Below the pieces are notes generated by a model. The model did no database searches and was not told where the DNA came from. It worked only from the letters and a program-made list of their open reading frames with translations. The translations under genes and the position numbers were made by a program. Shown here piece by piece: positions 287 to 43,215 of a stretch of 64,000 nt of DNA. Within the stretch, counting starts at the first letter, position 1. The number at the start of each line of letters is the position of its first letter. The DNA comes from Candidatus Berkelbacteria bacterium CG10_big_fil_rev_8_21_14_0_10_43_13 (GTDB taxonomy: Bacteria; Patescibacteriota; UBA1384; XYA2-FULL-43-10; 1-14-0-10-43-13): contig PEZW01000009.1 in the NCBI GenBank assembly GCA_002773985.1, positions 23,546 through 87,545 of the forward strand, in the 5' to 3' direction.

Positions 287-374
287 TGTCATCCCTGCCA
301 GTAGCTGGAGAGCAGGGATCTTACTATATAATAGCTCAAGATCCCGCATCTCGCGCTTACAGTGCGGGATGACA
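287..374. repeat. Small palindromic element copy (TGTCATCC...GGGATGACA termini, internal hairpins tccctgc/gcaggga and atcccgca/tgcgggat)
   Basis: Seen directly: inverted termini and two internal hairpins. Same termini recur at 10699-10847, 19937-20145, 20975-21102 and 43147-43215. Confidence 0.5.
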
Positions 375-447
375 AACAGGGGAATTGTTCAAACGCGTAA
401 ATCCTATCTAATAACATTTTAGCTTGCGCCAACTTATTCTGCAATAG

Positions 448-2910
448 CTAATTTGTCACAACTGCCTGATAAACTTCATCGATTGTCGTTTCCCCGGCCA
501 CAGCCTTCAAAATCCCATCTTGCTTCATCGTAATCATACCGGCCTTGATGGAAGCATTTTTAATCTCATCTGCCGGTCGCTTGGTCGTCGCCATCTCCTC
601 AATCTCCGGCGTCATCGTCATCGCTTCATAGATACCGACACGACCCTTGAACCCGTGATTGCACTCAGAGCAACCCTTGCCATGAAAAAGCTTGATCTCG
701 GCCGGAATTCTTGCCCGATCTTTCGTATTGGCTTCCGGAATTTTGTCCAGCTCAGCCTTGATCTGGTCGAAAAGCCGCTGTGGTGCCTTGTATTCCTCTT
801 TGCATTTGGGACAAATCCGTCTAATCAGCCTCTGGGCAATGATCAGATTGATCGAGGACGTGATCAGAAATGGCTCGACGCCCATATTTGTCAATCTCGG
901 CAGAGCGCCGGCTGTATCATTGGTATGTAGTGTAGAAAGCACCAAGTGACCTGTCAGAGCTGAGTGAACTGCCATAGTCGCTGTTTCCGCATCACGAATC
1001 TCACCGACCATGATCACGTTTGGATCCTGACGCAAGATACTGCGAAGCCCTGAAGCAAATGTAAATCCTATCTCCGGCTTGATCTGGCACTGATTGATCC
1101 CGGCAATTTCATATTCAACCGGATCCTCGAGTGTGACTATATTGACACCCGGCATACTGATACGGTTTAGGATGGCATATAGAGTTGTGGATTTGCCTGA
1201 ACCGGTCGGCCCAGTCGATAAAATAATTCCATATGGTTTGGCGATTGCGGCGATGGTTTTGTCAAAGGCACTGCCCTGCATACCCAAGTCCTCCAGAGAC
1301 AGGATGCCCTGACTTTTGTCGAGAATTCTCATCACGATTTTTTCACCATGAACAGTCGGCAGTGTCGAAACACGTACATCAACTTCGCGCTCATCAAAAA
1401 CAGTGTCGAAGCGACCATCCTGCGGAACTCGCATTTCATCAATCTTCAGCTTTGACATAATCTTGATCCTGCTGACAAAAGCAGCATGGTCACTTACCGG
1501 CAACTTCAAGATATCACGCAAAATACCGTCGACGCGACACCTGATGCGCAGATATTTTGCCTCAGGTTCTACATGGATGTCACTTGAGCGATTGTTTAGA
1601 GCGTAATCAATGATTGCGGCAACCACCTTTGGCACCGAAGCACCCTTGGCAAAATCAACCAAGTCTTGGTCGGTCTTTATCTCATGATCGAGCCAATCAC
1701 CAAGATTTTTGTTGTCGAGTAAGGCAACTGATTCACCACCCTCTTTGTCACTAGATGCTTCTTCTTTTGCTGACTCTTGGTCCGTATTGCTTTCGCTAGC
1801 ACCATGATCAGAGGTGTCATCTGAGTCTTTTTCTGATGCCTCTTTAGTCTCAGCAGATTGAGGTTTGTTCTGGTCAGAGGGCTGATCTTTTGTAGCATTT
1901 TTCACTGTTTCTGCTGGGTCGGCAGTTTTTGCTGCAGTAGAGTCAGCTTCAACACTATCGATGGTTAGCTCTGGACCAGCTGAACTCCTAAAATTATCCA
2001 TAAAACTTTTGATACCCGACTTCTGTCCCGATTCCTTCGTAGAGCCTGAGTCATCTGAGGATTCATGATTATCTTCAGTTTTAGTGACGGGAGCATCTGT
2101 TTTCTTCGCTTTTGGCGCTTCTGATATGTAAGTTTTTGTCTTGTCGAGAATAAAATCAATGTCTGCTTTTGAAGTCGCAAATATTTCATATTTAATCTGA
2201 TTTTCCTGCTTGATAAAATTCAAAATTTTTATTGTGACCGGTGAATCAGGTTGCTCACAAGCGATAAGGTAATATCCATGATTGTTCCGTCCAAAGACGA
2301 CAATGCGATATTTTATCATAAATTCACGTGGAATTTTCTCAATAAATTCCGAGGCAATTGTCTGGTTTCTCAGGTAGATGACAGGAAAACGTCCTTTTTT
2401 CAGCAAAGAATCGTTCTTGTATTTTTTGTTGTATTGTTTGATGCATTCATCAAAGTCAGACTCGCTGGTGATGAAAAGCTCAACTTCCAGTTCTTTTTCT
2501 TCAAGTATTTTGCTGAGACCAGACCTAAAGCCAACCAGAAGATCGGCAGGTCGTGAAAGTGCTATCCTGATCGCACCATCCTCCAGAGAAAACGGTATTA
2601 TTCCGTATTTTTGTGCTACTTTTTCTGGTATTAGAGCTTTGAGCTCGTCAGAAATTTTAATATTACTAAGCTCTACATAGGGCAACTTCAAAACAATACT
2701 ATAAGCCTTGTTGATCGTATTTCTGGTGACAATTTTGTTCTTAACTAAAAAATTTTCGATCTCTCGGTTTGTTTTAAATTGTCGCTTGAGTTTTTCAGCA
2801 TCTTCTTGGTCGATCAAATCCTGAATCACAAAAACGTCCAGAATTGATTGACTGGTAAGCGCCATATTCGAAAAACCGTAATACTCAGTTATTGTGTTTG
2901 CATCTGCCAT
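448..2910 (-). CDS. pilB: Type IV pilus assembly ATPase PilB/GspE with a long internal acidic low-complexity linker
   Basis: GspE N-terminal domain, Walker A GPTGSGKST, and a CPKC..CSEC tetracysteine motif typical of GspE/PilB. About 230 aa of S/D/E/K-rich low-complexity insert lies between the N-domain and the ATPase. Confidence 0.9.
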   Translation of the reverse strand: MADANTITEYYGFSNMALTSQSILDVFVIQDLIDQEDAEKLKRQFKTNREIENFLVKNKIVTRNTINKAYSIVLKLPYVELSNIKISDELKALIPEKVAQKYGIIPFSLEDGAIRIALSRPADLLVGFRSGLSKILEEKELEVELFITSESDFDECIKQYNKKYKNDSLLKKGRFPVIYLRNQTIASEFIEKIPREFMIKYRIVVFGRNNHGYYLIACEQPDSPVTIKILNFIKQENQIKYEIFATSKADIDFILDKTKTYISEAPKAKKTDAPVTKTEDNHESSDDSGSTKESGQKSGIKSFMDNFRSSAGPELTIDSVEADSTAAKTADPAETVKNATKDQPSDQNKPQSAETKEASEKDSDDTSDHGASESNTDQESAKEEASSDKEGGESVALLDNKNLGDWLDHEIKTDQDLVDFAKGASVPKVVAAIIDYALNNRSSDIHVEPEAKYLRIRCRVDGILRDILKLPVSDHAAFVSRIKIMSKLKIDEMRVPQDGRFDTVFDEREVDVRVSTLPTVHGEKIVMRILDKSQGILSLEDLGMQGSAFDKTIAAIAKPYGIILSTGPTGSGKSTTLYAILNRISMPGVNIVTLEDPVEYEIAGINQCQIKPEIGFTFASGLRSILRQDPNVIMVGEIRDAETATMAVHSALTGHLVLSTLHTNDTAGALPRLTNMGVEPFLITSSINLIIAQRLIRRICPKCKEEYKAPQRLFDQIKAELDKIPEANTKDRARIPAEIKLFHGKGCSECNHGFKGRVGIYEAMTMTPEIEEMATTKRPADEIKNASIKAGMITMKQDGILKAVAGETTIDEVYQAVVTN

Positions 2911-2968
2911 TCTACCTTGAATATTTCCTAATTTGCTAGCAAAAACTAAAAACCTGCCAAGTCAACAA

Positions 2969-3244
2969 CTAATTGCTCGCAAAAGGATTGTCGCGACCGA
3001 CCTGGTCAGATGTTGGAGGCTGGACCGGTAAATCTCCGGCGTTTGTTTTATCAGAAATTAATGACTTGGCTGTCGAAGCCAGATTGGAAACCTCGATAGT
3101 TTGATATTTTTGGTCAGCAGATGTGTCTATTGCTACCTCAGACTGAGCTGAGCTCCAAAACCAAAAGAAACCAGCCACCGTCACAACCAGCAGTAGAGAG
3201 CTACCAATAATTCCAAGCATCCGTGATTTTGTGTTTTTACCCAT
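2969..3244 (-). CDS. Small single-pass membrane protein in the pilus operon (possible PilP-like)
   Basis: ORF with an N-terminal TM helix (LLLVVTVAGFFWFW), co-directional and tightly spaced with pilB and the PilO-like gene. Confidence 0.4.
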   Translation of the reverse strand: MGKNTKSRMLGIIGSSLLLVVTVAGFFWFWSSAQSEVAIDTSADQKYQTIEVSNLASTAKSLISDKTNAGDLPVQPPTSDQVGRDNPFASN

Positions 3245-3271
3245 TTAATTCCTTTCTCGATTTGATGAAAA

Positions 3272-3877
3272 TTATTGTGCCGTTGCAGTGGACATCACAT
3301 CAGCAGACGCACCACCACTGATCGTAGATGTGTCTCCCTGTGTGTATGTTTCCAGTTGAAGAGTCGTGGAGAAGGTGCCGTCATCAGCCGGTGCGATCGT
3401 AGCACTCTTGATAGCAAAGAACTTTAGATTGCTCTCGATCGACTTGACAAAACCGGTCAAACCGGCAAAATCTCCGCTGACAGAGAAAGATACAGAGACG
3501 GCTCCAGTACTGGTACTCTGGGACTGGTCGCTCGTGCCACTGCTATCTGATCCACCGGAAATTTGAAAACTGGGAATGTATGTTTTGTTGGCAGTCGCTA
3601 TCGCTTCCAAAGTCGTGATGATGTCACCGTTGTCCTGATCACTCGGAACCGCCACAAACATCGAATCAACCGTCGAACCAAGACTGTCAAGGGTTGACTT
3701 GGCCGTCTTGAGCGAGTCTAGCTTGGCTTTGACCGCCGTCAGCTCATGATCTACCTGAGCAACATCAGCCTTGTTTTGTTTGTATTGCGGTATGATCCAA
3801 AACCAGCTCAGTAAAAAGGCAACTATCACCAGAAAAACTGCGATAAATCCGGGAGTCGATGATTTCTTCTTTTCCAT
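3272..3877 (-). CDS. PilO-like type IV pilus assembly protein
   Basis: N-terminal TM, coiled-coil segment, S/T-rich C-terminus. Operon position after the PilN-like gene. Confidence 0.5.
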   Translation of the reverse strand: MEKKKSSTPGFIAVFLVIVAFLLSWFWIIPQYKQNKADVAQVDHELTAVKAKLDSLKTAKSTLDSLGSTVDSMFVAVPSDQDNGDIITTLEAIATANKTYIPSFQISGGSDSSGTSDQSQSTSTGAVSVSFSVSGDFAGLTGFVKSIESNLKFFAIKSATIAPADDGTFSTTLQLETYTQGDTSTISGGASADVMSTATAQ

Positions 3878-3878
3878 T

Positions 3879-4571
3879 TTAGATTCCTCCTTCTGTTGCG
3901 CTAACTGAGGCTGTAGAAAGCGCAGTAGTTTTATCCACAGTCGCTGAGATAGAGAAAGTCACCGAGACAACACCTGATTCGACACTCTCGGATTCAGAAT
4001 CGAGTGTCGCTGTGGTAACGACATTTTTTTCATCTATCTTCCAATTTTTCAGTGTCGCAACCTGTTGTGCCGCTGACTTGTAACTGTCAGTCGTGCCGGA
4101 AAAGCTAACTTTTCCTGTGTCATCCACCGATAATGTCGTGACGACAACGTTTTTGTTCACCTGACCATAAAGAAGTGGCAAAAAGTTGTCCATCGAAAAT
4201 CGGCTCTTGGAAGCTGTGCTTAGCTGGTTGACCGCAGACTGAAATTGATTCGCCCTCGTTTCGAGTGCAGCATATGTCGGACTGGAAATCTCGGCGACAG
4301 CATCATCTTTCTGGCTAGTCTTATCTGCAAGATCCTGTGTCGCGCTACTGTTTAGAAACCAAAAAAACACAGTGGCGCTGATCGCTATGATTGCACTGAG
4401 CCAGAGAAGCAATCCGGAGATGCTAAACTCGCCGTGATCCGCCATCTCTGTGAGATAATCGTCACCACTATTTCCGCCACTTGGCCTTGGCGCTGGTGCC
4501 GGAGCTGGAGCAGACGATGGTATAGACGCTGATCCTGCTGCTTGGCTATCTAAAGTTTTTTCGAGATCCAT
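3879..4571 (-). CDS. PilN-like fimbrial assembly membrane protein with Pro/Ala-rich N-terminus
   Basis: TM helix around residues 55-75, then a periplasmic domain. Operon context. Confidence 0.45.
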   Translation of the reverse strand: MDLEKTLDSQAAGSASIPSSAPAPAPAPRPSGGNSGDDYLTEMADHGEFSISGLLLWLSAIIAISATVFFWFLNSSATQDLADKTSQKDDAVAEISSPTYAALETRANQFQSAVNQLSTASKSRFSMDNFLPLLYGQVNKNVVVTTLSVDDTGKVSFSGTTDSYKSAAQQVATLKNWKIDEKNVVTTATLDSESESVESGVVSVTFSISATVDKTTALSTASVSATEGGI

Positions 4572-4641
4572 GATCTCCCTCCTAATTCGTTTGTATATAT
4601 TGTATTAAATAGTGAAATAAAAAGCAAATTTTTTTAAAATA

Positions 4642-4672
4642 GAATCATGAATACTGAATCATGAATTATGGG
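4642..4672. repeat. Left inverted repeat flanking the four-helix-bundle gene (gaatcatgaatactgaatcatgaattatgg)
   Basis: Near-perfect reverse complement of 5039-5068. Confidence 0.7.
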
Positions 4673-5042
4673 TCTTTGATTTTTTAATCAATCCAGAAAT
4701 TAACTTGTGCGCGATGATTGTTTGATTTGCTATCTCTTGAAACAATTTATTATCAATAAGACCAATATCTCTGGCAATTAGAATTTGATTTTGAGCTTCA
4801 GTGACCGAACCCTGGGCAATCGAATAAAATTGAACTTTTTCTTTGTATGACTGACGACTGAACCCCTCGGCAATATTTGAGGTAATCGAAACGATGCATC
4901 TCCTGAGTTGATTTGTTAACCCGAACAATTCTTCTTTTGGAAATTTGTTTGTCGTTTTATATACTGCTAAAACTAACTTATGACCTTCTTTCCAAGCATT
5001 TAAATCGGTAAATGATTTTATTTTTTCTGGATGTTCTTCCAT
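4659..5042 (-). CDS. Four-helix-bundle protein of the 23S rRNA intervening-sequence protein family
   Basis: 127 aa with the characteristic FPKEE..L..QL.RA..SI..NIAEG motif. Flanked by 30-bp inverted repeats. Confidence 0.75.
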   Translation of the reverse strand: MEEHPEKIKSFTDLNAWKEGHKLVLAVYKTTNKFPKEELFGLTNQLRRCIVSITSNIAEGFSRQSYKEKVQFYSIAQGSVTEAQNQILIARDIGLIDNKLFQEIANQTIIAHKLISGLIKKSKTHNS

Positions 5043-5068
5043 AATTCATAATTCTTGATTCATGATTC
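5039..5068. repeat. Right inverted repeat flanking the four-helix-bundle gene
   Basis: ccataattcataattcttgattcatgattc is the reverse complement partner of 4642-4672. Confidence 0.7.
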
Positions 5069-5087
5069 AACTTGATCCAGTGCTGAG

Positions 5088-6254
5088 CTAATTTTTGTTC
5101 CCAACCTCTTCAGAACGCGGCATCGCCAAGTTTCGAAAACCTGGTGGCTGGCTGTTGTCAAAAGCCGGGTCATAAGAAAATAAGACTGATTGGTTCTGAT
5201 TGATCGAAAAATCTGACGCGACAAAAGAACCAGTAAACTCACCATTACCAGTGACTTCAAAATTTGATTCACAGTACATCATGACATTTATTTTATTGTT
5301 TCCTCCAAAATTACAGTTTCCCCCAGTACCGTCAGCTTTTTTCAAAACTATAATACCCAGTTTATCGCCAGACGTAGAATTTGGCAGAATATTTTTATTT
5401 TGGTTAATAGTCAGGTTGCCACCATTGACAACAATAGTGCCAATTCCATTGAAATTTGCCGAATTGTTAATGGTCAAATTACCATTGACAACCCAAACCT
5501 TACCATCAGGAAATTTCGCAAGATCACCTTTGGAGTTATTTTTGAAGAAATTAATAGGAGTATCAGCCTGAAGAGAAAAATTACTTGTAAACAGAAAATC
5601 GTTCGCCGCAATCGGCTGACCACTCCCAGCTAGAGTTTTCAGCTGGGCGATATATTGCTTGTACTGATTGCTTCCATACTTAACCTGAGCAGCAGGATTG
5701 AAGACATAGCTAGATCCAGGCGCCCAGCCAGCTCCATCAGCTGCACCAGCACCTTCAAACAAGTTGGCTGGATTCCAAAATTTTGCCAGATATTCCAAAG
5801 TAGAGCCAGCTTCACCACTATAAACATCGCCATCGACATTTAGCCCGAGAAAAATCAGGGCGGGTATTTCATAAACGACATTACCGTCCACTAGCGTCTG
5901 ACTGGTCATCAGACGGCCAGAACCACCATAATAATTTTGGCCTTCATTACCAGTGCCAAGACTAAAACAGGCTGCCATGCCAGTGGTAAATAATTGCCAA
6001 ATACAACCAATTTGCCCCAGTGCGGCTTCTGTTTTGTTGAATCCAAGATCACCGTTTGTATTGTTATTCAAAACTGCATGATTACCACCAAGTCCACCAT
6101 AAGTAATTTCACCAGAACTTGTGGTTACCTTGGTACTACCTGATATAATTTCCGGGAAATTAGACGAAGCAGCTCTGACTTTTACCACAGAAAAAACTGT
6201 TGCTACTGCAACTAAAAATACGATTAATCTCTGTGTTTTAAATCTATTTTTCAC
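5088..6254 (-). CDS. Secreted protein with Asn/Gly-rich beta-helix-like repeats (possible pilus-associated or adhesin protein)
   Basis: Signal peptide MKNRFKTQRLIVFLVAVATVFSVVKVRA. Repeats such as VVNGNLTINNSANFNGIGTIVVNGGNLTIN. Same operon as the pil genes. Confidence 0.5.
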   Translation of the reverse strand: MKNRFKTQRLIVFLVAVATVFSVVKVRAASSNFPEIISGSTKVTTSSGEITYGGLGGNHAVLNNNTNGDLGFNKTEAALGQIGCIWQLFTTGMAACFSLGTGNEGQNYYGGSGRLMTSQTLVDGNVVYEIPALIFLGLNVDGDVYSGEAGSTLEYLAKFWNPANLFEGAGAADGAGWAPGSSYVFNPAAQVKYGSNQYKQYIAQLKTLAGSGQPIAANDFLFTSNFSLQADTPINFFKNNSKGDLAKFPDGKVWVVNGNLTINNSANFNGIGTIVVNGGNLTINQNKNILPNSTSGDKLGIIVLKKADGTGGNCNFGGNNKINVMMYCESNFEVTGNGEFTGSFVASDFSINQNQSVLFSYDPAFDNSQPPGFRNLAMPRSEEVGNKN

Positions 6255-6282
6255 GATAATTTATTTTCAAATTATGATGTCT

Positions 6283-8145
6283 TTATTGCACCTTACAATA
6301 ATAAGTAAGCGAAGTGCCAGAGCTAATACCAGTCCACAACACATAACCATTGAGGTTATCTGCCGCCCCAACATTACTTGGATTGCCCCTCGTTGTATCA
6401 TTTTTACACGCTACACTCGAACCACCAGAGCCAGGAGCAGTAAGGTAGTCATCTTCGACAGAAACAGTTCCACTAAAGGTTCCAAGATCAAGCTTGACCT
6501 GAATAATATCTCCCACTTGCAAAGCATAAGGATTAAAATTATCCACAGGACTAGCACTTTTTCGTTCAACTGGAATAAGGGTTTTCTTTATCGTCACCTT
6601 CGCCGCGGCGTCAGTTTGCTGGATGTAAATCCGCCCACCACCACCGGCAGGCCCTTGGGTGGAGAGATGACTTGCTCCACCGACAGCCTGTATGTTTGTG
6701 TATAAGGAATTTACAACGGGACTATTGTTTTCCTGACCAAGCGTAGATGATGAGTAATGCACTGTACCTACTGCCGCTGCATTTCCAAAGTCATTTCCCG
6801 AGGGATTTCTCACCGCATAACTAGACAAACTCGCTGTTGGATGTAAATTAACAAATGCTTTACTAAATGAAATTATTATGGAACCACCGGATCCACCACC
6901 TGGGGCCGTTTTATAATCGTTAGTTCCGTCACCTCCATTCGCCAGAATAAATGAAGACGAATCCATATAAATGGAATCAGAAAAAAGCATAACTCTGCCA
7001 CCGCCAGGTCCACCGTCCGACACTCTCTTTCCTTCTGTACCACCACCACCAGACCCCCATTCAAAATTTGCGGGTAAACCCGAAAAGGAAGCATCTCCAT
7101 AAGCAACCCCTCCGGCAAGATCCCCGTTTTGACCATGACCGCCATAGCCAGCTCCAGAACCAGAACACCCCCTTGTGCCGCGTGAGCACCCCCATCCATG
7201 CCCTGGACCATATCCGACAGAAGAGTATTGATTATTAATACCACCAGGATAACCCTTGTTGCTTACATCGATCAAACTAGCATTCAGACTGATTGCTTTA
7301 CCCACTACTAGATCAACCTTTTTCCAATGCGCAGCGTTAGAAATATCATTTACTAGAGAAAATGATGGGTTGTTTCCATCTACATCAGAGGTGGTTATCT
7401 GAGTGTGATTTAGGGTGGTATTGTTTAGAGTCAGGCTGGCAAAGTGCCTCTTTGTATCACAATCAGACATTTGATTATAGGCAGCTGTATACAATGAGTT
7501 AAGCATTTTAGGCGTAAAACTAGCCAAGCACTGGACTCCATTGTAATGATAGGTTAGTTGACCTTGCATGATATAGTTTTGGGCAGCAGGGGTATATACA
7601 TACTGGCACTGCAAGTAATAACCCCACAAGCCACCGGCTGAATTCCAGCTTTTTTCGAACGCATAAGTGTTTCCTCCGTAGTTGTAAGTGGCCGGACAAT
7701 TAGCGTTGTCCGCTGGGTGGATCACCTGAGTCAACGGAGTTGACGCCTTGGTATAGTGGCAAACGTTATCATTTTCACTGAAATAACTAAGGTAATACCC
7801 ACCTCCTGGTGCGTATACGCATTCATAATGTGTCCCATCCTTCTGCCAGACACCAACCGTATCAGCATTGATAGTTCCCCCATGAGTTGTAACAGTATAA
7901 TCAGGTCCACACACTGCAGGGAAATATGTGGAGGACCCTGAACCGACGCATGTGTGAGCCGTAGTATTAATCGTCCAGCCAGCCAAGGTGTATGTAGACG
8001 CATTGGCCTTTCGTGGAGACTGTGAGATAATCATCTCCCCTAGTACCACGAAGAGAAGCAGGCATGCCAGAATAGTCACCACTCGAAATCTACGTCTAGA
8101 TCTAAGAACATCTGAAATTGATATTTTTGCCATTATTCCCCTCAC
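6283..8145 (-). CDS. Large membrane-anchored Gly-rich, Cys-containing surface protein
   Basis: 620-aa ORF with an N-terminal TM and long GGxGG-type glycine-rich tracts. First gene of the pilus operon. Confidence 0.55.
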   Translation of the reverse strand: MRGIMAKISISDVLRSRRRFRVVTILACLLLFVVLGEMIISQSPRKANASTYTLAGWTINTTAHTCVGSGSSTYFPAVCGPDYTVTTHGGTINADTVGVWQKDGTHYECVYAPGGGYYLSYFSENDNVCHYTKASTPLTQVIHPADNANCPATYNYGGNTYAFEKSWNSAGGLWGYYLQCQYVYTPAAQNYIMQGQLTYHYNGVQCLASFTPKMLNSLYTAAYNQMSDCDTKRHFASLTLNNTTLNHTQITTSDVDGNNPSFSLVNDISNAAHWKKVDLVVGKAISLNASLIDVSNKGYPGGINNQYSSVGYGPGHGWGCSRGTRGCSGSGAGYGGHGQNGDLAGGVAYGDASFSGLPANFEWGSGGGGTEGKRVSDGGPGGGRVMLFSDSIYMDSSSFILANGGDGTNDYKTAPGGGSGGSIIISFSKAFVNLHPTASLSSYAVRNPSGNDFGNAAAVGTVHYSSSTLGQENNSPVVNSLYTNIQAVGGASHLSTQGPAGGGGRIYIQQTDAAAKVTIKKTLIPVERKSASPVDNFNPYALQVGDIIQVKLDLGTFSGTVSVEDDYLTAPGSGGSSVACKNDTTRGNPSNVGAADNLNGYVLWTGISSGTSLTYYCKVQ

Positions 8146-8382: not shown

Positions 8383-8937
8383 CTACTGCTGATCGAGAGC
8401 TGAGAAGTCCAGGGCGGACATGTTGTCGACGTTCTCCCTGACCGTCTCCTGCTGGTCATGGTTGGCATCATACCAGACCACAGTGACCACCCAGTAGCCG
8501 GCAAGGTCACCACTGTCCGGGCAAACGAACCAGAGCTCGTCACCGTTGATGCCGCCGGTCGTGTACCGCCAGATTGCCGCCTCATCAGCATTGACTTGGC
8601 CATCGCCGTTGCTGTCCTTCCAGACAAACAACTGGCGCCAAGTCTCGACCGAGTTACTCAGCAATGTCAGCTTGACAACCGTCTTGTTGTCGCTCGTCAA
8701 GAGGCGGCTTCCCTCGACACTGCCCTGACGGTCTCGGAGACCGACGGTGTAGCCGGCACCATCACGGACTGTGATAGACAAAGTCTTTGTGCCGGTTGTC
8801 GGATAACCGTTGCTTCCGCCGGCGCCGCCGGCGCCGCAGCCGACCAGCGCGAGGCTGGCCAGAGCGGTCAGAATCGAAACGACCAACCACATGCTGATCT
8901 TGCGCATCTGTCGCTCCATCGTCTGGATTAGCACCAT
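8383..8937 (-). CDS. Putative lipoprotein encoded in a GC-rich islet
   Basis: Signal peptide plus lipobox LALVGC. The region is about 60% GC against an approximately 40% background. Overlapping alternative-frame ORFs are GC artefacts. Confidence 0.45.
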   Translation of the reverse strand: MVLIQTMERQMRKISMWLVVSILTALASLALVGCGAGGAGGSNGYPTTGTKTLSITVRDGAGYTVGLRDRQGSVEGSRLLTSDNKTVVKLTLLSNSVETWRQLFVWKDSNGDGQVNADEAAIWRYTTGGINGDELWFVCPDSGDLAGYWVVTVVWYDANHDQQETVRENVDNMSALDFSALDQQ

Positions 8938-9083
8938 CGCCTTGTTGGCGATTTATTCCAGATCTCGCTCAAACCATACAATATATTGAAAAAAAATGCA
9001 AGGGGTCGACAGTACCCGCTTACTCGCCCCTGTCATTTTAACCCTATGAACTCTGCGAATCGTCGGAGAAATCTGACACGGAG

Positions 9084-9109
9084 TGTCATCCTGAGCTTGT
9101 CGAAGGATC
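9084..9109. repeat. Short hairpin copy of the TGTCATCC repeat family (tgtcatcctgagcttgtcgaaggatc)
   Basis: Shares the GTCATCCTGAGC...CGAAGGATC core with other copies. Confidence 0.4.
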
Positions 9110-9203
9110 TTCTCAAAAAACAAGATCTCTCCACCCTCGATGAACCGAGGAGTCGAGATAACAATATGAAATGAGTGATTAATTACTCTGTCGCCCATTG
9201 CAT

Positions 9204-9232
9204 TGTCAATAAATTTGTGTTATGATAGTAAA
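9204..9232 (+). promoter_or_regulatory. Candidate sigma70 promoter (TTGTCA -35, TGn extended -10) about 165 nt upstream of the DEAD-box helicase
   Basis: ttgtcaataaatttgtgttatgatagtaa. A long 5' UTR is typical of cold-shock DEAD helicases. Confidence 0.3.
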
Positions 9233-9395
9233 AGTTAGAAAAATTGTTCTATAGATTTCCGAGAAAGTAATTAATAATTTCGACGTTCTATACGGCAATT
9301 GAGAGCTAGTCAGTCCAGTAACTCGACAGGCTCAATAAATTATTAATTATTTTTGTCGTTTTTTGTTTTGCAAATTTCGGCAATAAGAAGGAAAC

Positions 9396-10676: not shown

Positions 10677-10698
10677 TATAGGACTTACAAGACCCATA

Positions 10699-10847
10699 TG
10701 TCATTCCCGCGAAGGCGGGAATCCAGGCAAGGCAAGTAGTACTAAATATAAACATAACTCAACTTACCTGGATCCCCGGGCCATGGCGTTGCTGTTCGAC
10801 TGCCGCTCACAGTCTGAGTGCAATCGAAGACCTGCCCGAGGATGACA
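10699..10847. repeat. MITE-like palindromic element (TGTCATTCC...GGATGACA) between the helicase and typA
   Basis: Terminal inverted repeats. The internal segment ctcacagtctgagtgcaatcgaagac is near-identical to an internal segment of the 19937-20145 copy. Confidence 0.55.
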
Positions 10848-12741: not shown

Positions 12742-12967
12742 TTACTGACTCTCAATATAGTTAAATTTAAAACATCGTAGATTGGACACTATCCTCCTTC
12801 GCCAAAGCTTCCCACTTCGTCAAGACTATGCATGACAAGACGGGAGGACACAGTCGCGCGCAATCTACATAATTACTCACTCACCCTTAGAGTGTCATCT
12901 CGACCGAACACACCAAGATATTTCAAACACTAAAAGGATTTTTTCTGCTGTATTAAACGTTTTTCTG

Positions 12968-14155: not shown

Positions 14156-14282
14156 ACCTTTTATTTTACCAGCTAATCACTAGCTTATATTTTACATTTA
14201 CAGACGAACATAATCAACCATAATATTCTAAAAATTAAGCAACACAAACACAAAATATCCATCTCTGAGATGAATATTTTAT

Positions 14283-14330
14283 GGCAGGGGCTAGAGGAGT
14301 CGGTTACGGTCAAAAATCTGTTGATTTTTG
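14283..14330 (-). pseudogene. Degenerate copy of the tRNA-Trp 3' end
   Basis: Minus-strand 3' end CGACTCCTCTAGCCCCTGCCA matches the tRNA-Trp 3' end. No complete cloverleaf could be built. Confidence 0.35.
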
Positions 14331-14426
14331 CCTCGACCCCGTCTCGACGCCAGTCGCGCCTCCGACTTTCGACTCCTTTTACTGTCACATATCAAAATTA
14401 TCTCAACCAATTTGGTTGAGATAATT

Positions 14427-14470
14427 TTGGCAGGGACTAGAGAAGTCGAACCTCTGGCTAGGGTTTTGCC
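14427..14470 (-). pseudogene. tRNA 3' fragment (intact T-arm AGAGG-TTCGACT-TCTCT plus acceptor 3' strand and CCA, no 5' half)
   Basis: Minus strand reads ...AGAGGTTCGACTTCTCTAGTCCCTGCCA. No complementary acceptor 5' strand upstream. Confidence 0.4.
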
Positions 14471-14492: not shown

Positions 14493-14566
14493 TGGCAGGG
14501 GTACGAGGAGTCGGACCCCGGCTTGCGGTTTTGGAGACCGCCGTTCTACCGCTAAACTATACCCCT
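14493..14566 (-). tRNA. tRNA-Trp (anticodon CCA)
   Basis: Manual fold: acceptor AGGGGTA/TACCCCT, D-stem GTTT/GAAC, anticodon stem GCGGT/ACCGC with loop CTCCAAA, T-stem CGGGG/CCTCG, CCA encoded. Confidence 0.7.
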
Positions 14567-14756
14567 ATCAAAAACAGTTTTCTCGCGCAGGCGGGGAGAC
14601 CTCCGTTATACCGTTTTCCGCCAAAGGCGGATCAGTCTCAGACTAAAACTAAGCCCCTAAATTAGTTCATAAAGTTTATCAAGTGGAAAAGTTTTTAAAG
14701 TAATAATGAAATGATCTTTACAAACTTTATGAACTTTTTGCTTTACAAACTTATAA

Positions 14757-19840: not shown

Positions 19841-19936
19841 AATGTAGCAAAGCCAATCTGAATTGACAATACACAGACAGATAGTAGAATGAAGATAACA
19901 ATTCTTAATTCTTAATTCTTACCACTGTTGTATAAT

Positions 19937-20145
19937 TGTCATCCTGTCTTCGACTCTGAGGTCTAGCGACCTCGTCGCTCAGACTCGAATGAGAGCCGAT
20001 CTAGCTTGGAGGCGAAGGATCTAAGAGCCCTGTCCTGCCGGCCGGCCGTAGCCATTCGACTTGCGCTCATGGTCTGAGTGTAATTGAAGACTTTAACGAA
20101 GGCTGGAGTGAAATCGAACGGATTCTTCGTAGCCTCAGAATGACG
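19937..20145. repeat. MITE-like palindromic element, about 209 bp (TGTCATCC...GAATGACG), containing the hairpin gaaggctgg..cgtagcctc
   Basis: Terminal inverted repeats. Internal gctcatggtctgagtgtaattgaagac matches the 10699-10847 copy. Confidence 0.55.
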
Positions 20146-20199
20146 CCTAACGTCGAATTGTACAACACTGGTAATAATTAGAATTTGAGTGGAGATATT

Positions 20200-20974: not shown

Positions 20975-21102
20975 TGTCATCCTCGGGTTCAGCGATGTAG
21001 CTTGAGAGTGAAGCCCGGGGATCCAGAAAGTTTGGTTACGATTGTGCTACCTGGATTCCCACCGGAGTTTACCCCGTACTCTGATACGGGGCGGGAATGA
21101 CA
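20975..21102. repeat. MITE-like palindromic element, about 128 bp (CATCTGTCATCC...GGGAATGACAGATG)
   Basis: 13-bp terminal inverted repeats. Internal ccggggatcc and ggattccc palindromes. Confidence 0.55.
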
Positions 21103-22745: not shown

Positions 22746-23042
22746 TTTGACCTCAATACTATTTAGCTATTTCAATTCTTTGTTTTGTCCTCAACTTAAT
22801 TATATCAAACTTTATCTTTTATGTTCAGTAAAAAAACTAAGTATTTGTCTACAAATATTCACGATCGTGGAAAATCATAGACAAATTAATAATATTATTT
22901 ATTACTTTTTGTAATATTGACTGTGAATTTGAAACCGTAACAAGCAGGGGGCTGACCTTGAAATAATTACCATGAATAAAAAATTAGCCCTGGAAGGGGC
23001 TAATTTTTTACAATATACTTTATAACTCTATACTATATACTT

Positions 23043-23306: not shown

Positions 23307-23330
23307 TGTGTGTTCCTTCCGCTTTATTAA

Positions 23331-23420
23331 GATTATGACTTTACAAACTTGATAAACTTTATGACTTTATAAACTTTACAAACTTTTTAACTTTACAAAC
23401 TTTTTAACTTTATAAACTAT
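23331..23420. repeat. Degenerate tandem array of about 11-17 bp AT-rich units (CTTTACAAACTTTTTAA / CTTTATAAACTT)
   Basis: Five to six units seen directly. Similar units at 14700-14756. Confidence 0.6.
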
Positions 23421-23421
23421 A

Positions 23422-23655
23422 TTATTCTTTGCTCAACCCAAACCGCCAGATGGTTAGAATTAATATCACTACAATCCAGCCAAGGGCGATCCACACATGG
23501 ATTAGATTATCTAAAATTCTACCACCAAGTAGTGAAACCGACCGCATAATCCGAGGTAACGGTGATAACGGCAATATTTGAACGATATTATAGAGCCATT
23601 TCGGCAAGGAATCGATCGGAAAAAACATCATCGGAATAGTGATGGCTGTTGACAT
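23422..23655 (-). pseudogene. ABC-2 type permease C-terminal fragment
   Basis: 77-aa hydrophobic ORF, too short for a permease. Paired with a truncated ABC ATPase immediately upstream. Confidence 0.45.
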
Positions 23656-31013: not shown

Positions 31014-31418
31014 ATGACCAAAAAAGAACAACAAATTACACTTGATGATTTGGCGGCTATGGTCGCCAACGGTTTTCAGAAGATGTCTGACCAGTTTTCC
31101 GACCGATTTGATGGTGTCGACAAGCGTCTTGATGGTGTCGACAAGCGTCTTGATGGTGTCGACAAGCGTCTTGATGGTGTCGACAAGCGTCTTGATGGTG
31201 TTGAATTTAATATGAATGGTTTGCGTCAAGAATTCAACGCATTTCGAAGTGAGACACGTGCTAATTTTGAAAGGTTGTGGAATGAGATTGCAAAGATAAA
31301 TCATCGTCTCGATTTGATTGAAAAAAGAACAGACGAAGATACCGGTCTGGCTTTGTCTGAGATTGAAAAACTGAAAAAAAGAATTTTAATTCTTGAACAA
31401 AAGCTAAAAACCGCATAA
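31014..31418 (+). CDS. Small coiled-coil protein with an internal DGVDKRL x4 tandem repeat
   Basis: ATG at 31014, in frame with the longer track ORF that overlaps the upstream gene. Perfect 21-bp repeats. Confidence 0.5.
   Translation: MTKKEQQITLDDLAAMVANGFQKMSDQFSDRFDGVDKRLDGVDKRLDGVDKRLDGVDKRLDGVEFNMNGLRQEFNAFRSETRANFERLWNEIAKINHRLDLIEKRTDEDTGLALSEIEKLKKRILILEQKLKTA
31111..31200 (+). repeat. Perfect 21-bp tandem repeat x4 (gatggtgtcgacaagcgtctt) within the coding sequence
   Basis: Seen directly. A candidate VNTR. Confidence 0.85.
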
Positions 31419-33138: not shown

Positions 33139-33152
33139 CTTTTATTAACTTT

Positions 33153-37271: not shown

Positions 37272-37294
37272 AAAACATTAATCGCAAATCATTA

Positions 37295-37337
37295 AATATA
37301 AAAATATACAGTCTAAAGCTGTATATTTTTATATTTA
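37295..37337 (+). terminator. AT-rich 18-bp perfect hairpin (aaatataaaaatatacag/ctgtatatttttatattt) downstream of the PBP gene
   Basis: Perfect inverted repeat with a 7-nt loop, followed by a T-rich tract. Confidence 0.5.
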
Positions 37338-37398
37338 ATCTATTAACACGAGCTCTCTACACTTGACAGAACAGCACTCGATAGTGTACTATCGTGTT

Positions 37399-37412
37399 AA
37401 CACAGTGATACA
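37399..37412. promoter_or_regulatory. Palindromic operator-like site GTGTTAACAC upstream of the TrpR/YerC-like gene
   Basis: Perfect 10-bp palindrome. A second copy at 37757-37770 and a half-site at 37351-37357. Confidence 0.4.
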
Positions 37413-37429
37413 TAATCGAAGAGTAGAAA

Positions 37430-37732
37430 ATGAAACGCAAACTTGAACCACAACTAGATATGCCGGCACCGAAGAGTTTGTACGATGTTTTGGCAAAGAT
37501 AGATAAGCCAAAAGATATGGCTCTTTTTCTGCGTGATGTCCTGACGCTCGAAGAGATCGAGGAAGCCAGTCGTCGCTTTTTGATTGCTTCTAAGCTCAAG
37601 GAAGGCAAAGGTGTCCGCGAGACCGCTAAGGAATTTGGCGTCTCAACGACTACCGTTTCTCGCATCAACTATTGGCTCCATCATGGCACCGGTGGATATG
37701 ATTTAGCTTTGAAGAAATTAAATAATAAGTAA
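37430..37732 (+). CDS. TrpR/YerC-YecD family DNA-binding protein
   Basis: 100 aa. The C-terminal HTH GVSTTTVSRINYWL matches the Trp-repressor-like family. Confidence 0.7.
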   Translation: MKRKLEPQLDMPAPKSLYDVLAKIDKPKDMALFLRDVLTLEEIEEASRRFLIASKLKEGKGVRETAKEFGVSTTTVSRINYWLHHGTGGYDLALKKLNNK

Positions 37733-37756
37733 ACCCGATGATTGTGTCACAGTGTG

Positions 37757-37770
37757 TTAACACGATGAGA
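37757..37770. promoter_or_regulatory. Second GTGTTAACAC palindrome downstream of the TrpR-like gene, with direct repeat (g)acataatcga(t)aag
   Basis: Seen directly. Confidence 0.4.
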
Positions 37771-37832
37771 CATAATCGATAAGCATTACAGATAATTAAT
37801 TTTTCCAAGCCAGTCGTATCTACCACTAAGAC

Positions 37833-37853
37833 TCCGCCCTCGGGCGGTTTTTT
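37833..37853 (+). terminator. Rho-independent terminator (ccgccc-tcg-ggcgg + T6)
   Basis: GC hairpin followed by TTTTTT. Confidence 0.65.
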
Positions 37854-38085
37854 GGTGGCAAAAAACAAAGATGACCAGAAAGGCAATCACATGCACGGAA
37901 TCCCCACACCTACCGCTCGTGAAAAACAGATCGAGCGACTGCAGCAGGCAGCTCGTAATCTCGCCGACCCGTCTGGTGAGATCAGACAATGTTTGGAGGA
38001 TCTCAAAAGGAGACTGGAAGAGAAAGAGACGAAGATATTCTTCAGACTTCTCGAAGAGGAAGGGTGGCCAGATGAAAATGCATAA
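37852..38085 (+). CDS. Small hypothetical protein (start uncertain, possibly the internal Met at 37891)
   Basis: 77-aa ORF, charged, coiled-coil-like. Strong hairpin 38088-38122 just downstream. Confidence 0.3.
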   Translation: MVAKNKDDQKGNHMHGIPTPTAREKQIERLQQAARNLADPSGEIRQCLEDLKRRLEEKETKIFFRLLEEEGWPDENA

Positions 38086-38161
38086 CCCTGCGCTGCGCCC
38101 AGAAACTGGGCGCAGCGTACAACCAAACTACTAGTTATTAAATAATGAAAGGAAAAATCGC

Positions 38162-40743: not shown

Positions 40744-40752
40744 ATTGTCTTA

Positions 40753-42432
40753 TTATTTTGAATGAATTTTTATATCAATGATGTGCAAGCAAAGTTCAGA
40801 TTGACCGTTCCATTCGTCCAGGTTCAATGTGAATGCAAGGTCATATTTTTTATCTTCACTTATCATACTTTTATCATACGGAAAGAAAAAATGGATTAAT
40901 TTTATCCGATCATTTTGATCAACTGCTTTGGCTTGGAAATGGTTTTGGTCACGTCCGACAAATCGTATATTTTCGAAATTAACTTTTTCGGTCATAAAGG
41001 CTGGACGTGGGTTACCCATTCCAAACGGCTCGAAATGTAATACTTTTTCATACAATTTTCTCGACATTTCTGAGAGCTTGACTTCGGCATCGATCTTTAT
41101 CTTCTTGACCAGATCGCTATCTTTGATATTTTCTTTGCCGATTTTGGCAATCAATTTTTGAAACTTTGTCCAATTTACTGTCTTCATCGACAAACCAGCT
41201 GCGCCGGCATGACCACCAAATTTCTCAAGCAAATCCTTGGCCAGAGTTAATATATCGACGATATTGACGCCGCTGACACTTCGGGAGCTTCCGACCAACA
41301 TCACACCTTCTTCAGCGAAGAGAATGATCGGACGATTGTATTTTTCGACCATCCGACTTGCTGTCGGTCCGATGACTCCCTTCGGCCAGTCTCCACGAAC
41401 GATAATAATCTTGTCTGCCATCAAATTATTTTCTTCGATATATTTGGTTGCTTCCTTTTCGACCTTATCCATAGCCGCTTGTCGAGATTCATTTTCAGAG
41501 TTAAGCCATTTCGCCAATTCCTTCGCCTCAGCTGGGTCATCAGTCACCAGAAGTTCGAAAGATTTCGTCGCTTTACCCATTCGTCCCGGCGCATTTATCC
41601 TCGGTCCTATCTGAAAACCGACATGATATGCCCCGATATTTTCTGCGTCTAAATTTGCGATTCGAATTAGTTCTGCCAGACCGAGATTTTTGGTCTTGCG
41701 CATCACCAGCAAGCCAAACAGAGCAATAATTCTGTTTTCATTTTTCAAAGCCACAACATCAGAGATGGTCGAAATTGCAACTAAATCCAAATTCCACTTG
41801 AGAAATTTTTCATCAATATTGTCGGGGAATATTTTACCAAGTCCTTGAATTAATTTAAAAGCGACGGCACAGCCGCACAGATCTTTGTCTGGATACTTAT
41901 CCCCTTTTTGCTTCGGATTGATGACCAAAAATGCTTCAGGGGTCTTGTTATCCGGCAGATGGTGGTCAGTGATAATCAGATCAATTCCTATTTCTCTAGC
42001 ATAATTCGCTTCAGCAAAACTCCTGATACCGAGATCGATAGTTATGACAAGTTCACATTTTTTGGATTTCAATAAATCAAGACCAACTTTGCTCAGACCA
42101 TATCCATCATCACGACTTGGGATATAAACTTCGTGATCGATACCGATTTTTTTCAATGCACGAGAAAATAGTGCCGCACCTGGTACGCCATCAGCATCGT
42201 AGTCAGAGAAAATACCGATTTTTGTCTTGTTGTCATAAGCCAGTTTTATCCGATCGACTGCTTTCTCCAGATTTTTCATCAGAAACGGATCATGAAGGTC
42301 TTTGTTAAAATCAGGATTGAAAAATCTCTTTTTAGCCTCTTCGTCAGTTTCTAGCTGGATAACGCCCCGATTAAAAAGCAGTTGATCAAGCAGATCGTCA
42401 AATTGTCGTTTTTTTACTTTCCATTCTGGCAT
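40753..42432 (-). CDS. recJ: Single-stranded-DNA-specific exonuclease RecJ
   Basis: DHH motifs (ITDHH), DHHA1 GGHAGAAG. Confidence 0.85.
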   Translation of the reverse strand: MPEWKVKKRQFDDLLDQLLFNRGVIQLETDEEAKKRFFNPDFNKDLHDPFLMKNLEKAVDRIKLAYDNKTKIGIFSDYDADGVPGAALFSRALKKIGIDHEVYIPSRDDGYGLSKVGLDLLKSKKCELVITIDLGIRSFAEANYAREIGIDLIITDHHLPDNKTPEAFLVINPKQKGDKYPDKDLCGCAVAFKLIQGLGKIFPDNIDEKFLKWNLDLVAISTISDVVALKNENRIIALFGLLVMRKTKNLGLAELIRIANLDAENIGAYHVGFQIGPRINAPGRMGKATKSFELLVTDDPAEAKELAKWLNSENESRQAAMDKVEKEATKYIEENNLMADKIIIVRGDWPKGVIGPTASRMVEKYNRPIILFAEEGVMLVGSSRSVSGVNIVDILTLAKDLLEKFGGHAGAAGLSMKTVNWTKFQKLIAKIGKENIKDSDLVKKIKIDAEVKLSEMSRKLYEKVLHFEPFGMGNPRPAFMTEKVNFENIRFVGRDQNHFQAKAVDQNDRIKLIHFFFPYDKSMISEDKKYDLAFTLNLDEWNGQSELCLHIIDIKIHSK

Positions 42433-43100
42433 TATAATCCAAACTTTTTATTATTTAATTCGCGTAAAGCATCTGCAGCAATCCACCTAGCTGACTTGGA
42501 ATCAATCTGTTTGATTTCTTCCGCTAATTTAATTGCTTTTTTATTTAACTCTTTGTTTCGCTTGCCGATCTGGCGCAGACACCAATTCACCGCCTTTTTG
42601 ACAAAGTTGCGTTCATCGGTAGCATATTTTTTTATCATCGGAAAAAACTTTACAAACTCTTCGTCCGCCATTTTTTTGTCATGAACTGACAATGCAGTAA
42701 TGATGACGAAACCGGTGCGACGGACAAACTCCTCTTCTCTTTTGACCAATTCAAAGGCTTTTCTATAGGCAAAGTCAGTTTTATCAAATAAATTGCTACA
42801 GGTTTGATCGCAGATATCCCAACTGTCAAAATCAGCCGCCCAATCATCAAGCTGTTTCTCGGTCACCTTGTCCGGCTCGTCGATAAAGACTGCCAACATT
42901 CTCGCTTCATGAATGCCGCTGTTCCACAATTCAAGCGCCAATTCGTGATTTCGGCCGATTTCTTTGGCAATTTTCCTAAGTGTTGGCAGATTTGGTCCAC
43001 CAAGAACATTCTCTCCAGTAATTCCAAATCGCGCCATCCCCTCGCGGTTTTTGGCACTTTCATAAGTTTTTAGTTGTGCAATTATCTCTTCAGCGGTCAT
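42432..43100 (-). CDS. DNA alkylation repair protein (AlkD/AlkC-like HEAT-repeat glycosylase)
   Basis: 222 aa, helical-repeat architecture, conserved W and R positions of the AlkD family. Confidence 0.7.
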   Translation of the reverse strand: MTAEEIIAQLKTYESAKNREGMARFGITGENVLGGPNLPTLRKIAKEIGRNHELALELWNSGIHEARMLAVFIDEPDKVTEKQLDDWAADFDSWDICDQTCSNLFDKTDFAYRKAFELVKREEEFVRRTGFVIITALSVHDKKMADEEFVKFFPMIKKYATDERNFVKKAVNWCLRQIGKRNKELNKKAIKLAEEIKQIDSKSARWIAADALRELNNKKFGL

Positions 43101-43146
43101 CGAGAAATCCAGTTTTAAGTCTTAATATTTAGTCTGTAGTGAAATG

Positions 43147-43215
43147 CTGTCTGTACTGTCATTCTGAGCCTCAAAGCGAAGAATCAGTAACCGGTTCAGA
43201 GATCCTTCGCAAGCT
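43147..43215. repeat. Short MITE-like palindromic element (TGTCATTCTGAGCC...GCTCAGGATGACA), about 69 bp
   Basis: Imperfect inverted repeat with central aaccggtt. Confidence 0.55.

Follow-up and report, generated by a model that had tools for sequence, protein, structure and literature searches.

What are the short palindromic sequences that recur between the genes of a bacterium of the Candidate Phyla Radiation (CPR), and which enzyme might they serve? The question is raised by a stretch of 64,000 nucleotides from Candidatus Berkelbacteria bacterium CG10_big_fil_rev_8_21_14_0_10_43_13 (assembly GCA_002773985.1, contig PEZW01000009.1, positions 23,546 to 87,545), the whole of which is referred to here as the window. 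A first-pass annotation of this DNA had described a dispersed family of elements with inverted termini TGTCATCC...GGATGACA; the family is real, with 13 units where about one would be expected, and its description as small palindromic elements resembling repetitive extragenic palindromes (REPs) or miniature inverted-repeat transposable elements (MITEs) was borne out in that the units are oriented hairpins, form inverted pairs and are present in many copies. The units likely belong to a class of Ssn-related hairpin repeats that comprises the Neisseria Transformation Sequence (NTS) and the Ssn-related motif (SRM), the partner of which is a small nuclease, Ssn. The DEAD-box helicase of the window is PIS07847.1 (Candidatus Berkelbacteria), and the named relatives of its glycyl-tRNA synthetase (GlyRS) come from Patescibacteria and Berkelbacteria; the GTDB representatives do not include the species itself, and the best match among them is 86%.

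An oriented hairpin as the repeated unit

The window contains 18 occurrences of the 8-mer TGTCATYC where 4.8 are expected, a count reached by none of 100 shuffles. What recurs is nevertheless a small hairpin with a fixed orientation, composed of (T)GTC, a stem ATYC...GRAT and a following C, rather than a linear 8-mer. A strict scan for this architecture (GTC, ATYC stem, GRAT and C) returned 12 units, compared with a mean of 1.0 in 300 Markov shuffles, and a thirteenth unit with one stem mismatch, at 58324-58357, was found without the strict scan. The 13 units are distributed over eight sites: five hold inverted pairs (doublets) whose TGTCAT ends point outward, two hold solo units, and the eighth is a unit within the GlyRS gene. 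GTC is present in all 13 units and is preceded by T in 12, and a C stands directly 3' of the palindrome in all 13, a regularity that is partly imposed by the scan yet holds for 58324-58357, which was found without that requirement. Loops range from 4 to about 70 nt, and the inner stems vary but stay complementary (CCTGC/GCAGG, CCGCA/TGCGG, CCCGC/GCGGG, CTCGGG/CCCGGG and CCGGA/TCCGG). According to public gene calls, 12 of the 13 units and seven of the eight sites are intergenic, in a window of which about 14% is non-coding.

Conservation of structure rather than of letters was also seen when only the anchors were required. In 0.40 Mb made up of the window and the loci with Ssn-like genes described below, 37 distinct GTCATYC-N12-GRATC sites were present, as opposed to none in 1.2 Mb of control loci (unrelated loci, mostly from Actinomycetota, obtained in a contig search with GlyRS); 142 of the 148 inner-stem cells of these sites were paired, in at least 13 stem types, which indicates covariation of the stem. 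Among the stem pairs that are not Watson-Crick, G.T is in excess on the GTCAT strand (19 versus 8, p = 0.05), a weak signal from copies that are not independent, and this lean weakly fits a single-stranded function of that strand, whether as RNA or as DNA. Folded as single-stranded DNA (ssDNA), the doublets at 287-374 and 43157-43225 pair arm against arm, and the other doublets pair at their termini only and otherwise form local hairpins, so that the earlier statement that all copies fold into long hairpins applies to these two and not to the rest.

The first-pass coordinates needed few changes. All copies except the last were placed correctly, the last lying at 43157-43225 instead of 43147-43215 (a slip of 10 nt). 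Of the six copies presented as two-ended elements, the one at 9084-9109 is a single unit, and two further copies had been missed (58324-58357, and 57896-57921 in the GlyRS open reading frame, ORF). The right end of 19937-20145 reads GAATGACG. The conserved internal block that had been noticed does exist, with 31 of 38 positions identical, but it is a separate nested hairpin starting with GTCTTCGA, located at 10793-10831 and 20054-20091; 19946-19990 holds a third copy. The degenerate pieces reported at 12742-12960 and 55380-55690 contain plausible decayed units, although nothing in them passes a test.

Because the units are short and divergent, a generic repeat finder barely detects the family. 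A first loose scan (GTCAT followed by any 7-bp stem) gave 43 matches against 33 by chance and was dropped, as was a hammerhead interpretation of the CTGAG...CGAAG subtype made by eye, the core bases of which do not fit. Strain polymorphism was sought in the other contigs of this genome, all of which are at least 99.9% identical and carry no insertions or deletions at the elements.

Correspondence with the Neisseria Transformation Sequence

A full-text literature search with the core sequences retrieved one relevant paper, that of Chenal et al. (Nat Commun 2025; PMC11893778), in which the NTS is defined as CGTCATTCCCGCGMAVGCGGGAATCYRG and the SRM is introduced as a degenerate motif. The partner enzyme in Neisseria, SsnA, is a single-domain GIY-YIG nuclease of 94 aa (CDD family cd10448), which binds the hairpin only as ssDNA and on one strand only and does not bind RNA; its cut falls a few nucleotides before the hairpin, and it reduces transformation by DNA that carries the NTS (PMC11893778). 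Mutagenesis in the same study identified the C right after the palindrome as the most critical base for binding and the three bases directly before the palindrome as the main determinants of cleavage; the loop could be removed or extended with cleavage retained, and an altered stem sequence with the same structure abolished the activity of Neisseria SsnA. The paper further draws an analogy with REPs, lists Rickettsia among SRM-rich genomes and describes the Neisseria repeat dRS3; its association screen covered RefSeq reference and representative genomes, and the words 'Patescibacteria' and 'candidate' are absent from its text.

The window unit at 10699-10726 agrees with the Neisseria NTS consensus at 27 of 28 positions (one mismatch), where no such match is expected, and the NTS core is reproduced exactly in a unit at 5750-5773 of locus L003, some 4 kb beyond the window on its right side. 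Units that depart from the published SRM pattern do so only through loop length or tandem-G.A stems, and those with long loops may still be substrates, since the loop can be removed or extended without loss of cleavage (PMC11893778).

A nuclease gene bracketed by the same hairpins

The first-pass annotation had suggested searching for a cognate transposase. A candidate enzyme gene was indeed found, bracketed by hairpins and encoding a 94-aa GIY-YIG protein; it probably belongs to the Ssn family of ssDNA-specific nucleases, and not to the DDE or Y1 transposases. The gene is contained in a cassette of 362 bp at 5968-6329 of locus L177 (an extension of L101), which reads TGTCATTCCCGCGGAGGCGGGAATCCATGCAAG, then the gene of protein P0362 from ATG to TAA, then GGAATGGATCCCCGGGCCATGGCGTTGCCTGCCCGAGGATGACA, and which has the order hairpin A, ssn, inverted hairpin B, with the TGTCAT ends outward.

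The ends of this cassette recur in the window with the gene missing from between them. In the doublet D3 (units at 10699-10723(+) and 10771-10847(-)), the A arm, 10699-10731(+), with the sequence TGTCATTCCCGCGAAGGCGGGAATCCAGGCAAG, is identical to the left end of the cassette (L177 5968-6000) at 31 of 33 positions, the B arm, 10769-10847(-), is identical to the right end (L177 6290-6329) at 40 of 40 positions after removal of a 39-nt insert at 10793-10831, and a 37-nt spacer is present where the cassette has its gene. The doublet D5 and a further doublet, Dx, which lies in L003 some 4 kb to the right of the window, are built in the same way from A and B arms that are identical or near-identical to those of the cassette.

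The exact protein P0362 is always encoded between metK and pfkB, on contigs from ERZ27293400, ERZ27293386, JGI 3300008255 and SRR6240789, four of the six samples holding the window genome. L177 has a GC content of 0.425 and a tetranucleotide correlation with the window of 0.979, compared with 0.93-0.98 for the window's own 12-kb pieces, and its contig carries a CTGAG-type doublet of its own. P0362 has 94 aa with Y7, Y18 and E65, as against Y6, Y17 and E64 in the 94 aa of Neisseria SsnA; Pfam assigns P0362 and P0241 to GIY-YIG only, and the nearest PDB entries to P0362 are UPF0213 proteins.

A homologue of 23S_rRNA_IVP is encoded two genes from the ssn cassette in L177. The window has its own gene of this four-helix-bundle family at 4659-5042(-), inside the type IV pilus cluster, where 35-nt inverted repeats that are 83% complementary bracket it (4637-5073).

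Association of units with Ssn-like genes in metagenomes

A more distant Berkelbacteria metagenome-assembled genome (MAG), L048, contains, at 3723-4001, a GIY-YIG gene for 92 aa that is flanked immediately by units on either side. An alignment of homologues of this gene, in which Y5, Y16, R26, H30 and E63 are invariant, was used to scan JGI metagenomes, and 80 loci were obtained. At least one strict unit lies within 200 nt of the gene in 65 of these 80 loci, and the density of units is 6.67 per kb in the 150-nt flanks of the gene compared with 0.35 per kb elsewhere in the same loci, a 19-fold difference. In the main layout, the upstream unit has the orientation of the gene (67 cases) and the downstream unit is inverted (52 cases), which yields cassettes of 360-650 bp with the TGTCAT ends outward. 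The published patterns were also present, the NTS in 11 and the SRM in 26 of the 80 loci; the 1.2 Mb of control loci gave 0 NTS and 13 SRM matches. The CTGAG/CGAAG and long-loop subtypes of the window likewise flank Ssn-like genes in metagenomes, and this is where the description of the family as genome-specific breaks down: the units belong to a cross-phylum NTS/SRM class, and the same subtypes flank such genes in dozens of unrelated metagenomes. The core of the A arm, GTCATTCCCGCGNNNGCGGGAATC, is found in at least 120 viral or proviral contigs of IMG/VR, some of them with up to 13 copies among the matches listed.

An Ssn locus from a JGI sample shared with the window, L150, probably belongs to another organism, because its GC content is 33% and it contains no units. 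Another subfamily of small GIY-YIG proteins, retrieved with a query of GSTSNLEKRLERHN type, was rejected as the partner; in CPR genomes it is located within tRNA arrays together with other hairpins. Its members in Parcubacteria, Levybacteria and other Patescibacteria (L009, L010, L011 and L012) are genes for 84-87 aa inside tRNA gene arrays, where they adjoin partial tRNA duplications and hairpins of the form GTCCCGAT...ATCGGGA, as if tRNA genes were targeted. Beside ssn in L109, L112, L119 and L145, arrays of 5' half-units (for example TGTCATCCTTGC plus 7 nt, repeated three to four times) end in one complete hairpin, and they may be the footprint of repeated cutting and repair, or of insertion 5' of a unit.

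Taken as a whole, the structural agreement, the cassette and the enrichment beside the genes make it likely that the window units are NTS/SRM-class repeats with an Ssn nuclease as partner. Several points weigh against this assignment. The search for an Ssn/GIY-YIG gene, made with sequence queries and then with a hidden Markov model, found none in the window or in the 12 kb beyond its ends, and the published SRM pattern fits two of the 13 window units. The gene of P0362 very probably resides in the window's genome, a placement that derives from sample co-occurrence, composition and arm identity, not from one contig, and the NCBI MAG that contains the window's TypA (PIS07848.1) does not list P0362. 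In NCBIfam, P0362 has a weak match to a group I intron endonuclease model and nothing specific. One nuclease may not serve all four stem subtypes, because Neisseria SsnA is sequence-specific for the stem (PMC11893778). Finally, no pair of empty and filled sites was found for any doublet.

Insertion, gain and loss of units

Nested hairpins offer the clearest boundaries. The class-2 hairpin, GTC-TTCGA...TCGAA-C/T, has three copies, all in the window. The copy in the loop of the D3 B arm (10793-10831(-), 39 nt, GTC-TTCGA...TCGAA-C-A) can be compared with the uninterrupted B arm of the cassette, and its boundaries are exact: the insert starts at GTC, ends one base after the C of the palindrome, and is accompanied by no duplication. 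In the doublet D4, removal of a 45-nt hairpin (19946-19990) that splits the left unit restores TGTCATCCTGAG...GCGAAGGATC; the third copy lies at 20054-20091(-) in the same doublet. The A-type arm of D5 (21054-21102(-)) has a nested CCCCGTA...TACGGGG hairpin in its loop, and modules like it ("CCCC...GGGGTAAACT") are found inside units in other metagenomes.

Units are gained and lost among relatives. The solo unit S7, at 57896-57921(+) inside the GlyRS ORF (56873-58306, minus strand), is translated in frame as GSRIKSGMT and falls in a surface loop that varies among homologues in length and sequence. An identical unit is present in L173 (86% identity), a copy with one mismatch in L174 (78%) and a copy of the CGAG subtype in L175 (70%), whereas the closest relative, L176 (89%), has no S7 but a different perfect hairpin, CCTCCCCTC-GGA-GAGGGGAGG. 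L013 and several proteins carry simple repeats of GAAATCC type in this loop, read as SEIRNPKSETN..., and in several further relatives no insert is present. This loop of an essential enzyme resembles a hotspot at which palindromic or repetitive sequences are inserted. The solo unit S8 (58324-58357(+)), a GAGA-loop unit with one C.A mismatch that is located on the strand opposite to glyS, 18 nt upstream of its start, has orthologous units in L013 and L173 with a different, fully paired stem (GGC/GCC), and L176 is without it. Unit gain and loss among relatives is observed, and transposition as such is unproven.

Target-site duplications, which the first-pass annotation had proposed to look for, are absent: no direct repeats flank any doublet, and there are none at the nested inserts. 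Around 24 cassettes, likewise, neither longer inverted repeats nor target duplications are present outside the TGTCAT ends (8% reach p <= 0.02), and extended inverted repeats are absent at four of six doublets, with D1 marginal (p = 0.016) and D4 the only clearly significant case among the doublet flanks. The outer inverted repeat around D4 (19907-19936 and 20157-20185) is identical in 27 of 31 aligned columns, and its arms contain extended -10-like sequences, TGnTATAAT/TACAAT (TGTTGTATAAT and TGTTGTACAAT), that read inward, toward the gene on the far side.

As there are neither target-site duplications nor an empty and filled pair, the mobility of cassettes, doublets or single units is inferred. 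A bolder interpretation, put forward tentatively and still doubtful, is that the cassette could move autonomously and represent a new mechanistic class of mobile element, in which a GIY-YIG ssDNA nuclease would drive the movement via single-stranded intermediates and without target duplication, and that doublets, solo units and nested hairpins could be its non-autonomous derivatives, which would insert with exact GTC...C boundaries into hairpin loops, intergenic DNA and coding loops of essential genes in a symbiont genome of about 1 Mb. The three A+B doublets at different sites, the two nested insertions with exact boundaries, the presence or absence of units among close relatives and the half-unit arrays beside ssn are consistent with it; no actual transposition event or joining activity appears in the data analysed.

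Alternative explanations

The units might act at the RNA level, as terminators, attenuators, mRNA stabilisers or promoter donors, with the link to Ssn being incidental. This is improbable, even though the placement of the units invites it: seven of the eight sites are intergenic, several of them just upstream of typA, the zinc-ribbon gene, the M50 protease gene and glyS, and the first-pass annotation had accordingly proposed that copies supply promoters or terminators. That proposal found little to sustain it, as no terminator-like site (a stem plus a T run) overlaps any element and the ATGACA end provides a -35-like hexamer in only two promoter-like matches, of which one faces the holB-like gene. 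The G.T lean of the stems would suit an RNA function, and there is a weak likeness to the Francisella small RNA FtrB, which scores 23 bits where the gathering score is 66; this was the best result of permissive scans of two element regions, and neither these nor a scan of the whole window returned an Rfam family at threshold. Because most units are in inverted pairs, they show no orientation bias relative to transcription, and one unit is antisense inside a coding region. The bases that are conserved, GTC and the 3' C, are exactly the determinants of Ssn in Neisseria, where SsnA binds no RNA (PMC11893778), and the 19-fold enrichment of units beside Ssn genes would be left as a coincidence.

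Two readings that assign the repeats to a transposase are far less probable still, each to about the same degree. In the first, the units would be REPs, bacterial interspersed mosaic elements (BIMEs) or REPINs spread by a RAYT, a Y1 tyrosine transposase similar to that of IS200/IS605. Short imperfect palindromes with a conserved 5' tag, often in inverted pairs and in many intergenic copies, give the family a similar general look, and the analogy has been drawn for the Neisseria repeats (PMC11893778). The flanked gene is a GIY-YIG nuclease and not a Y1 transposase, however, and no transposase family was found among the window ORFs. The 5' tag of REPs is a GTAG-type tetranucleotide; that of the window units is GTC directly before the stem, as in the NTS. 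In the second, the elements would be classical MITEs, deletion derivatives of an insertion sequence with a DDE transposase and the terminal inverted repeat TGTCATCC. Inverted TGTCATYC/GRATGACA termini, small size, intergenic location and an 'autonomous' relative sharing both ends agree with this, but there are no target-site duplications, each end is a self-folding hairpin with covarying stems rather than a conserved linear repeat, solo and loop-nested units exist, and the gene between the shared ends encodes a 94-aa nuclease without a transposase domain.

An origin of the shared 8-mer in chance or base composition, for which only the shortness of the motif speaks, can be set aside in view of the excess of both the 8-mer and the structured unit over expectation, the 28-nt NTS match, and the cassette-arm identities (40/40 and 31/33).

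Setting of the units and other features of the window

D1 (287-320(+) and 340-374(-)) lies between the stop of a pilB-like gene (448) and the start of a pilT-like gene (about 190); its units have 8-bp stems, CCCTGC/GCAGGG and CCCGCA/TGCGGG, and 13-14-nt loops ending in GAGA. The solo unit S2, 9084-9109(+), in the divergent intergenic region 8908-9395, is of the CTGAG/CGAAG subtype; its 5-bp stem, ATCCT/AGGAT, is followed by tandem G.A mismatches and then by a short inner pair and the loop. The B arm of D3 ends 20 nt upstream of the typA start codon. D4 consists of a CTGAG-type left unit at 19937-20021(+) and a right unit at 20121-20145(-), between a holB-like gene (start 19840, minus strand) and the zinc-ribbon gene (start 20200). 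D5, with a B-type arm at 20975-21023(+) opposite its A-type arm, is located between rpmB (start about 20862, minus strand) and the M50 protease gene (21162). In D6 (43157-43185(+) and 43201-43225(-)), situated between a DNA-alkylation-repair gene and an ftsQ-like gene, both units are of the CTGAG/CGAAG type. Possible decayed units in 55505-55640, namely GTCCCGCGAAG...GTGGGAT and GTTTACCCTGAGCG...GTCGAAGGGTT (the latter at about 55590-55640), were recognised by eye only and fail the strict definition. The other ORFs of the window are housekeeping genes, including those for the type IV pilus, the dcw cell-wall and division cluster, tRNA synthetases, RecJ, RadA and others.

Further repeats and palindromes were recorded. 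Operator-like palindromes with a CACGATCGTG core (59054-59094 and 59727-59767) bracket a PaaX_M-like ORF (59159-59698) and recur at 22860-22869, and others with a GTGTTAACAC core (37378-37417 and 37740-37779) bracket an ORF with a Trp-repressor-like helix-turn-helix (37430-37732). The tRNA-Trp gene at 14493-14566(-) is followed by two partial copies of the tRNA 3' end (14424-14449 and 14278-14303), which look like what an integrated element would leave of its attachment site. Inside an ORF, at 31087-31212, a 21-nt tandem repeat, TTGATGGTGTCGACAAGCGTC, is present in about five copies, three of them identical. AT-rich repeats with a period of 8-9 nt (ACTTTACAAACTTTATAA...) occupy 23322-23424, within a long stretch of non-coding DNA, and an inverted copy related to them lies at 14664-14749, at a distance of 8.6 kb. 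Beyond the right end of the window, by about 5.5 kb, a LAGLIDADG_2 homing-endonuclease gene (L003 3860-4462) adjoins the Dx doublet.

Proposed mechanism and implications

By analogy with Neisseria, the hairpin would be extruded when the DNA is single-stranded, as in transforming DNA or in replication and repair intermediates, and Ssn would bind the extruded hairpin, with a need for the 3' C, and cut that strand alone, a few nucleotides to the 5' side of GTC. Such cutting may shorten recombination tracts around unit-flanked loci, and the consequence for the cell could be a modulation of recombination by incoming or exposed ssDNA. The partner would be P0362, encoded outside the window, whose action on the units is predicted from sequence. 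The doublets would represent gene-less A+B (or like-with-like) pairs, that is, MITE-like derivatives of the cassette, into the loops of which later hairpin modules would have been inserted precisely; one unit would have become fixed in frame in a tolerant loop of GlyRS, and the insertions in loops and in GlyRS would be tolerated by-products.

These observations extend the Ssn/NTS system to the CPR, through Candidatus Berkelbacteria. CPR bacteria are ultra-small symbionts with very little repetitive DNA and are believed to rely on type IV pili and the uptake of DNA. DNA uptake is the process that Ssn modulates in Neisseria, and pilB-, pilT- and pilC-like genes lie beside one of the doublets, which may be coincidence. 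The class itself was described in 2025; what is new here is the CPR host, the long-loop and nested units, the identity between cassette and doublets, and the in-frame copy. The pairing of a cassette with gene-less derivatives, together with the exact insertions, makes it directly testable whether Ssn spreads its own repeats. Genome-wide SRM counts are probably underestimates, because the published pattern misses most of the units here (those with long loops, tandem-G.A stems or nested modules). For annotation, the units can be translated into spurious peptides such as GSRIKSGMT, and masking is advised in CPR genomes; many Ssn-like genes are found on contigs that are very short, a sign that the repeats may interrupt metagenome assembly.

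Comparison with known systems

Classical MITEs such as the Correia elements share with the window elements a small size, inverted termini, intergenic location, a possible outward -35-like end and derivation from a gene-bearing element; the elements here differ in having neither target-site duplications nor a DDE transposase, and their ends are self-folding and also exist alone. Rickettsia palindromic elements, which are about 100-150 bp long and inserted in frame in coding genes, are similar in that a palindromic repeat is tolerated in frame in a protein of a reduced-genome symbiont, as in the GlyRS unit at 57896-57921, although they are longer than the units of the window.

REP/BIME/REPIN-RAYT systems likewise consist of hairpins with an orienting 5' tag, inverted doublets and a single-copy gene flanked by repeats, with recognition of ssDNA. 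They employ an HUH/Y1 enzyme in place of the GIY-YIG nuclease found here, and the 5' tag and hairpin consensus differ. RAYT-dependent REP activity is experimentally supported; for Ssn-dependent spread we know of no experimental support.

In Neisseria, the intergenic mosaic elements (NIMEs) are short variable intergenic segments bracketed by inverted hairpin copies, and short variable intergenic segments between inverted hairpins are found here too, with the unit at 10703-10722 fitting the dRS3 pattern ATTCCC-N8-GGGAAT. The phylum is another one, however, the spacers and arms differ, and many arms here are not of the ATTCCC type.

NTS/SRM-SsnA has in common with the present units the frame of GTC, a palindrome ATTCCC/ATCCC...GGGAAT/GGGAT and a 3' C, often followed by CAG; a single-domain GIY-YIG partner of about 94 aa with equal spacing of the catalytic residues; the layout of hairpin, ssn and hairpin; and multi-copy, mostly intergenic repeats. 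The differences lie in the host, which here belongs to the CPR/Patescibacteria, and in the kind of support, as the Neisseria system has been shown biochemically and the window system is described from sequence. Most units here have long loops (8-70 nt), tandem-G.A stems or nested hairpins, and gene-less A+B doublets with cassette-identical arms, as well as a unit in frame in a housekeeping gene, are features shown in the present system.

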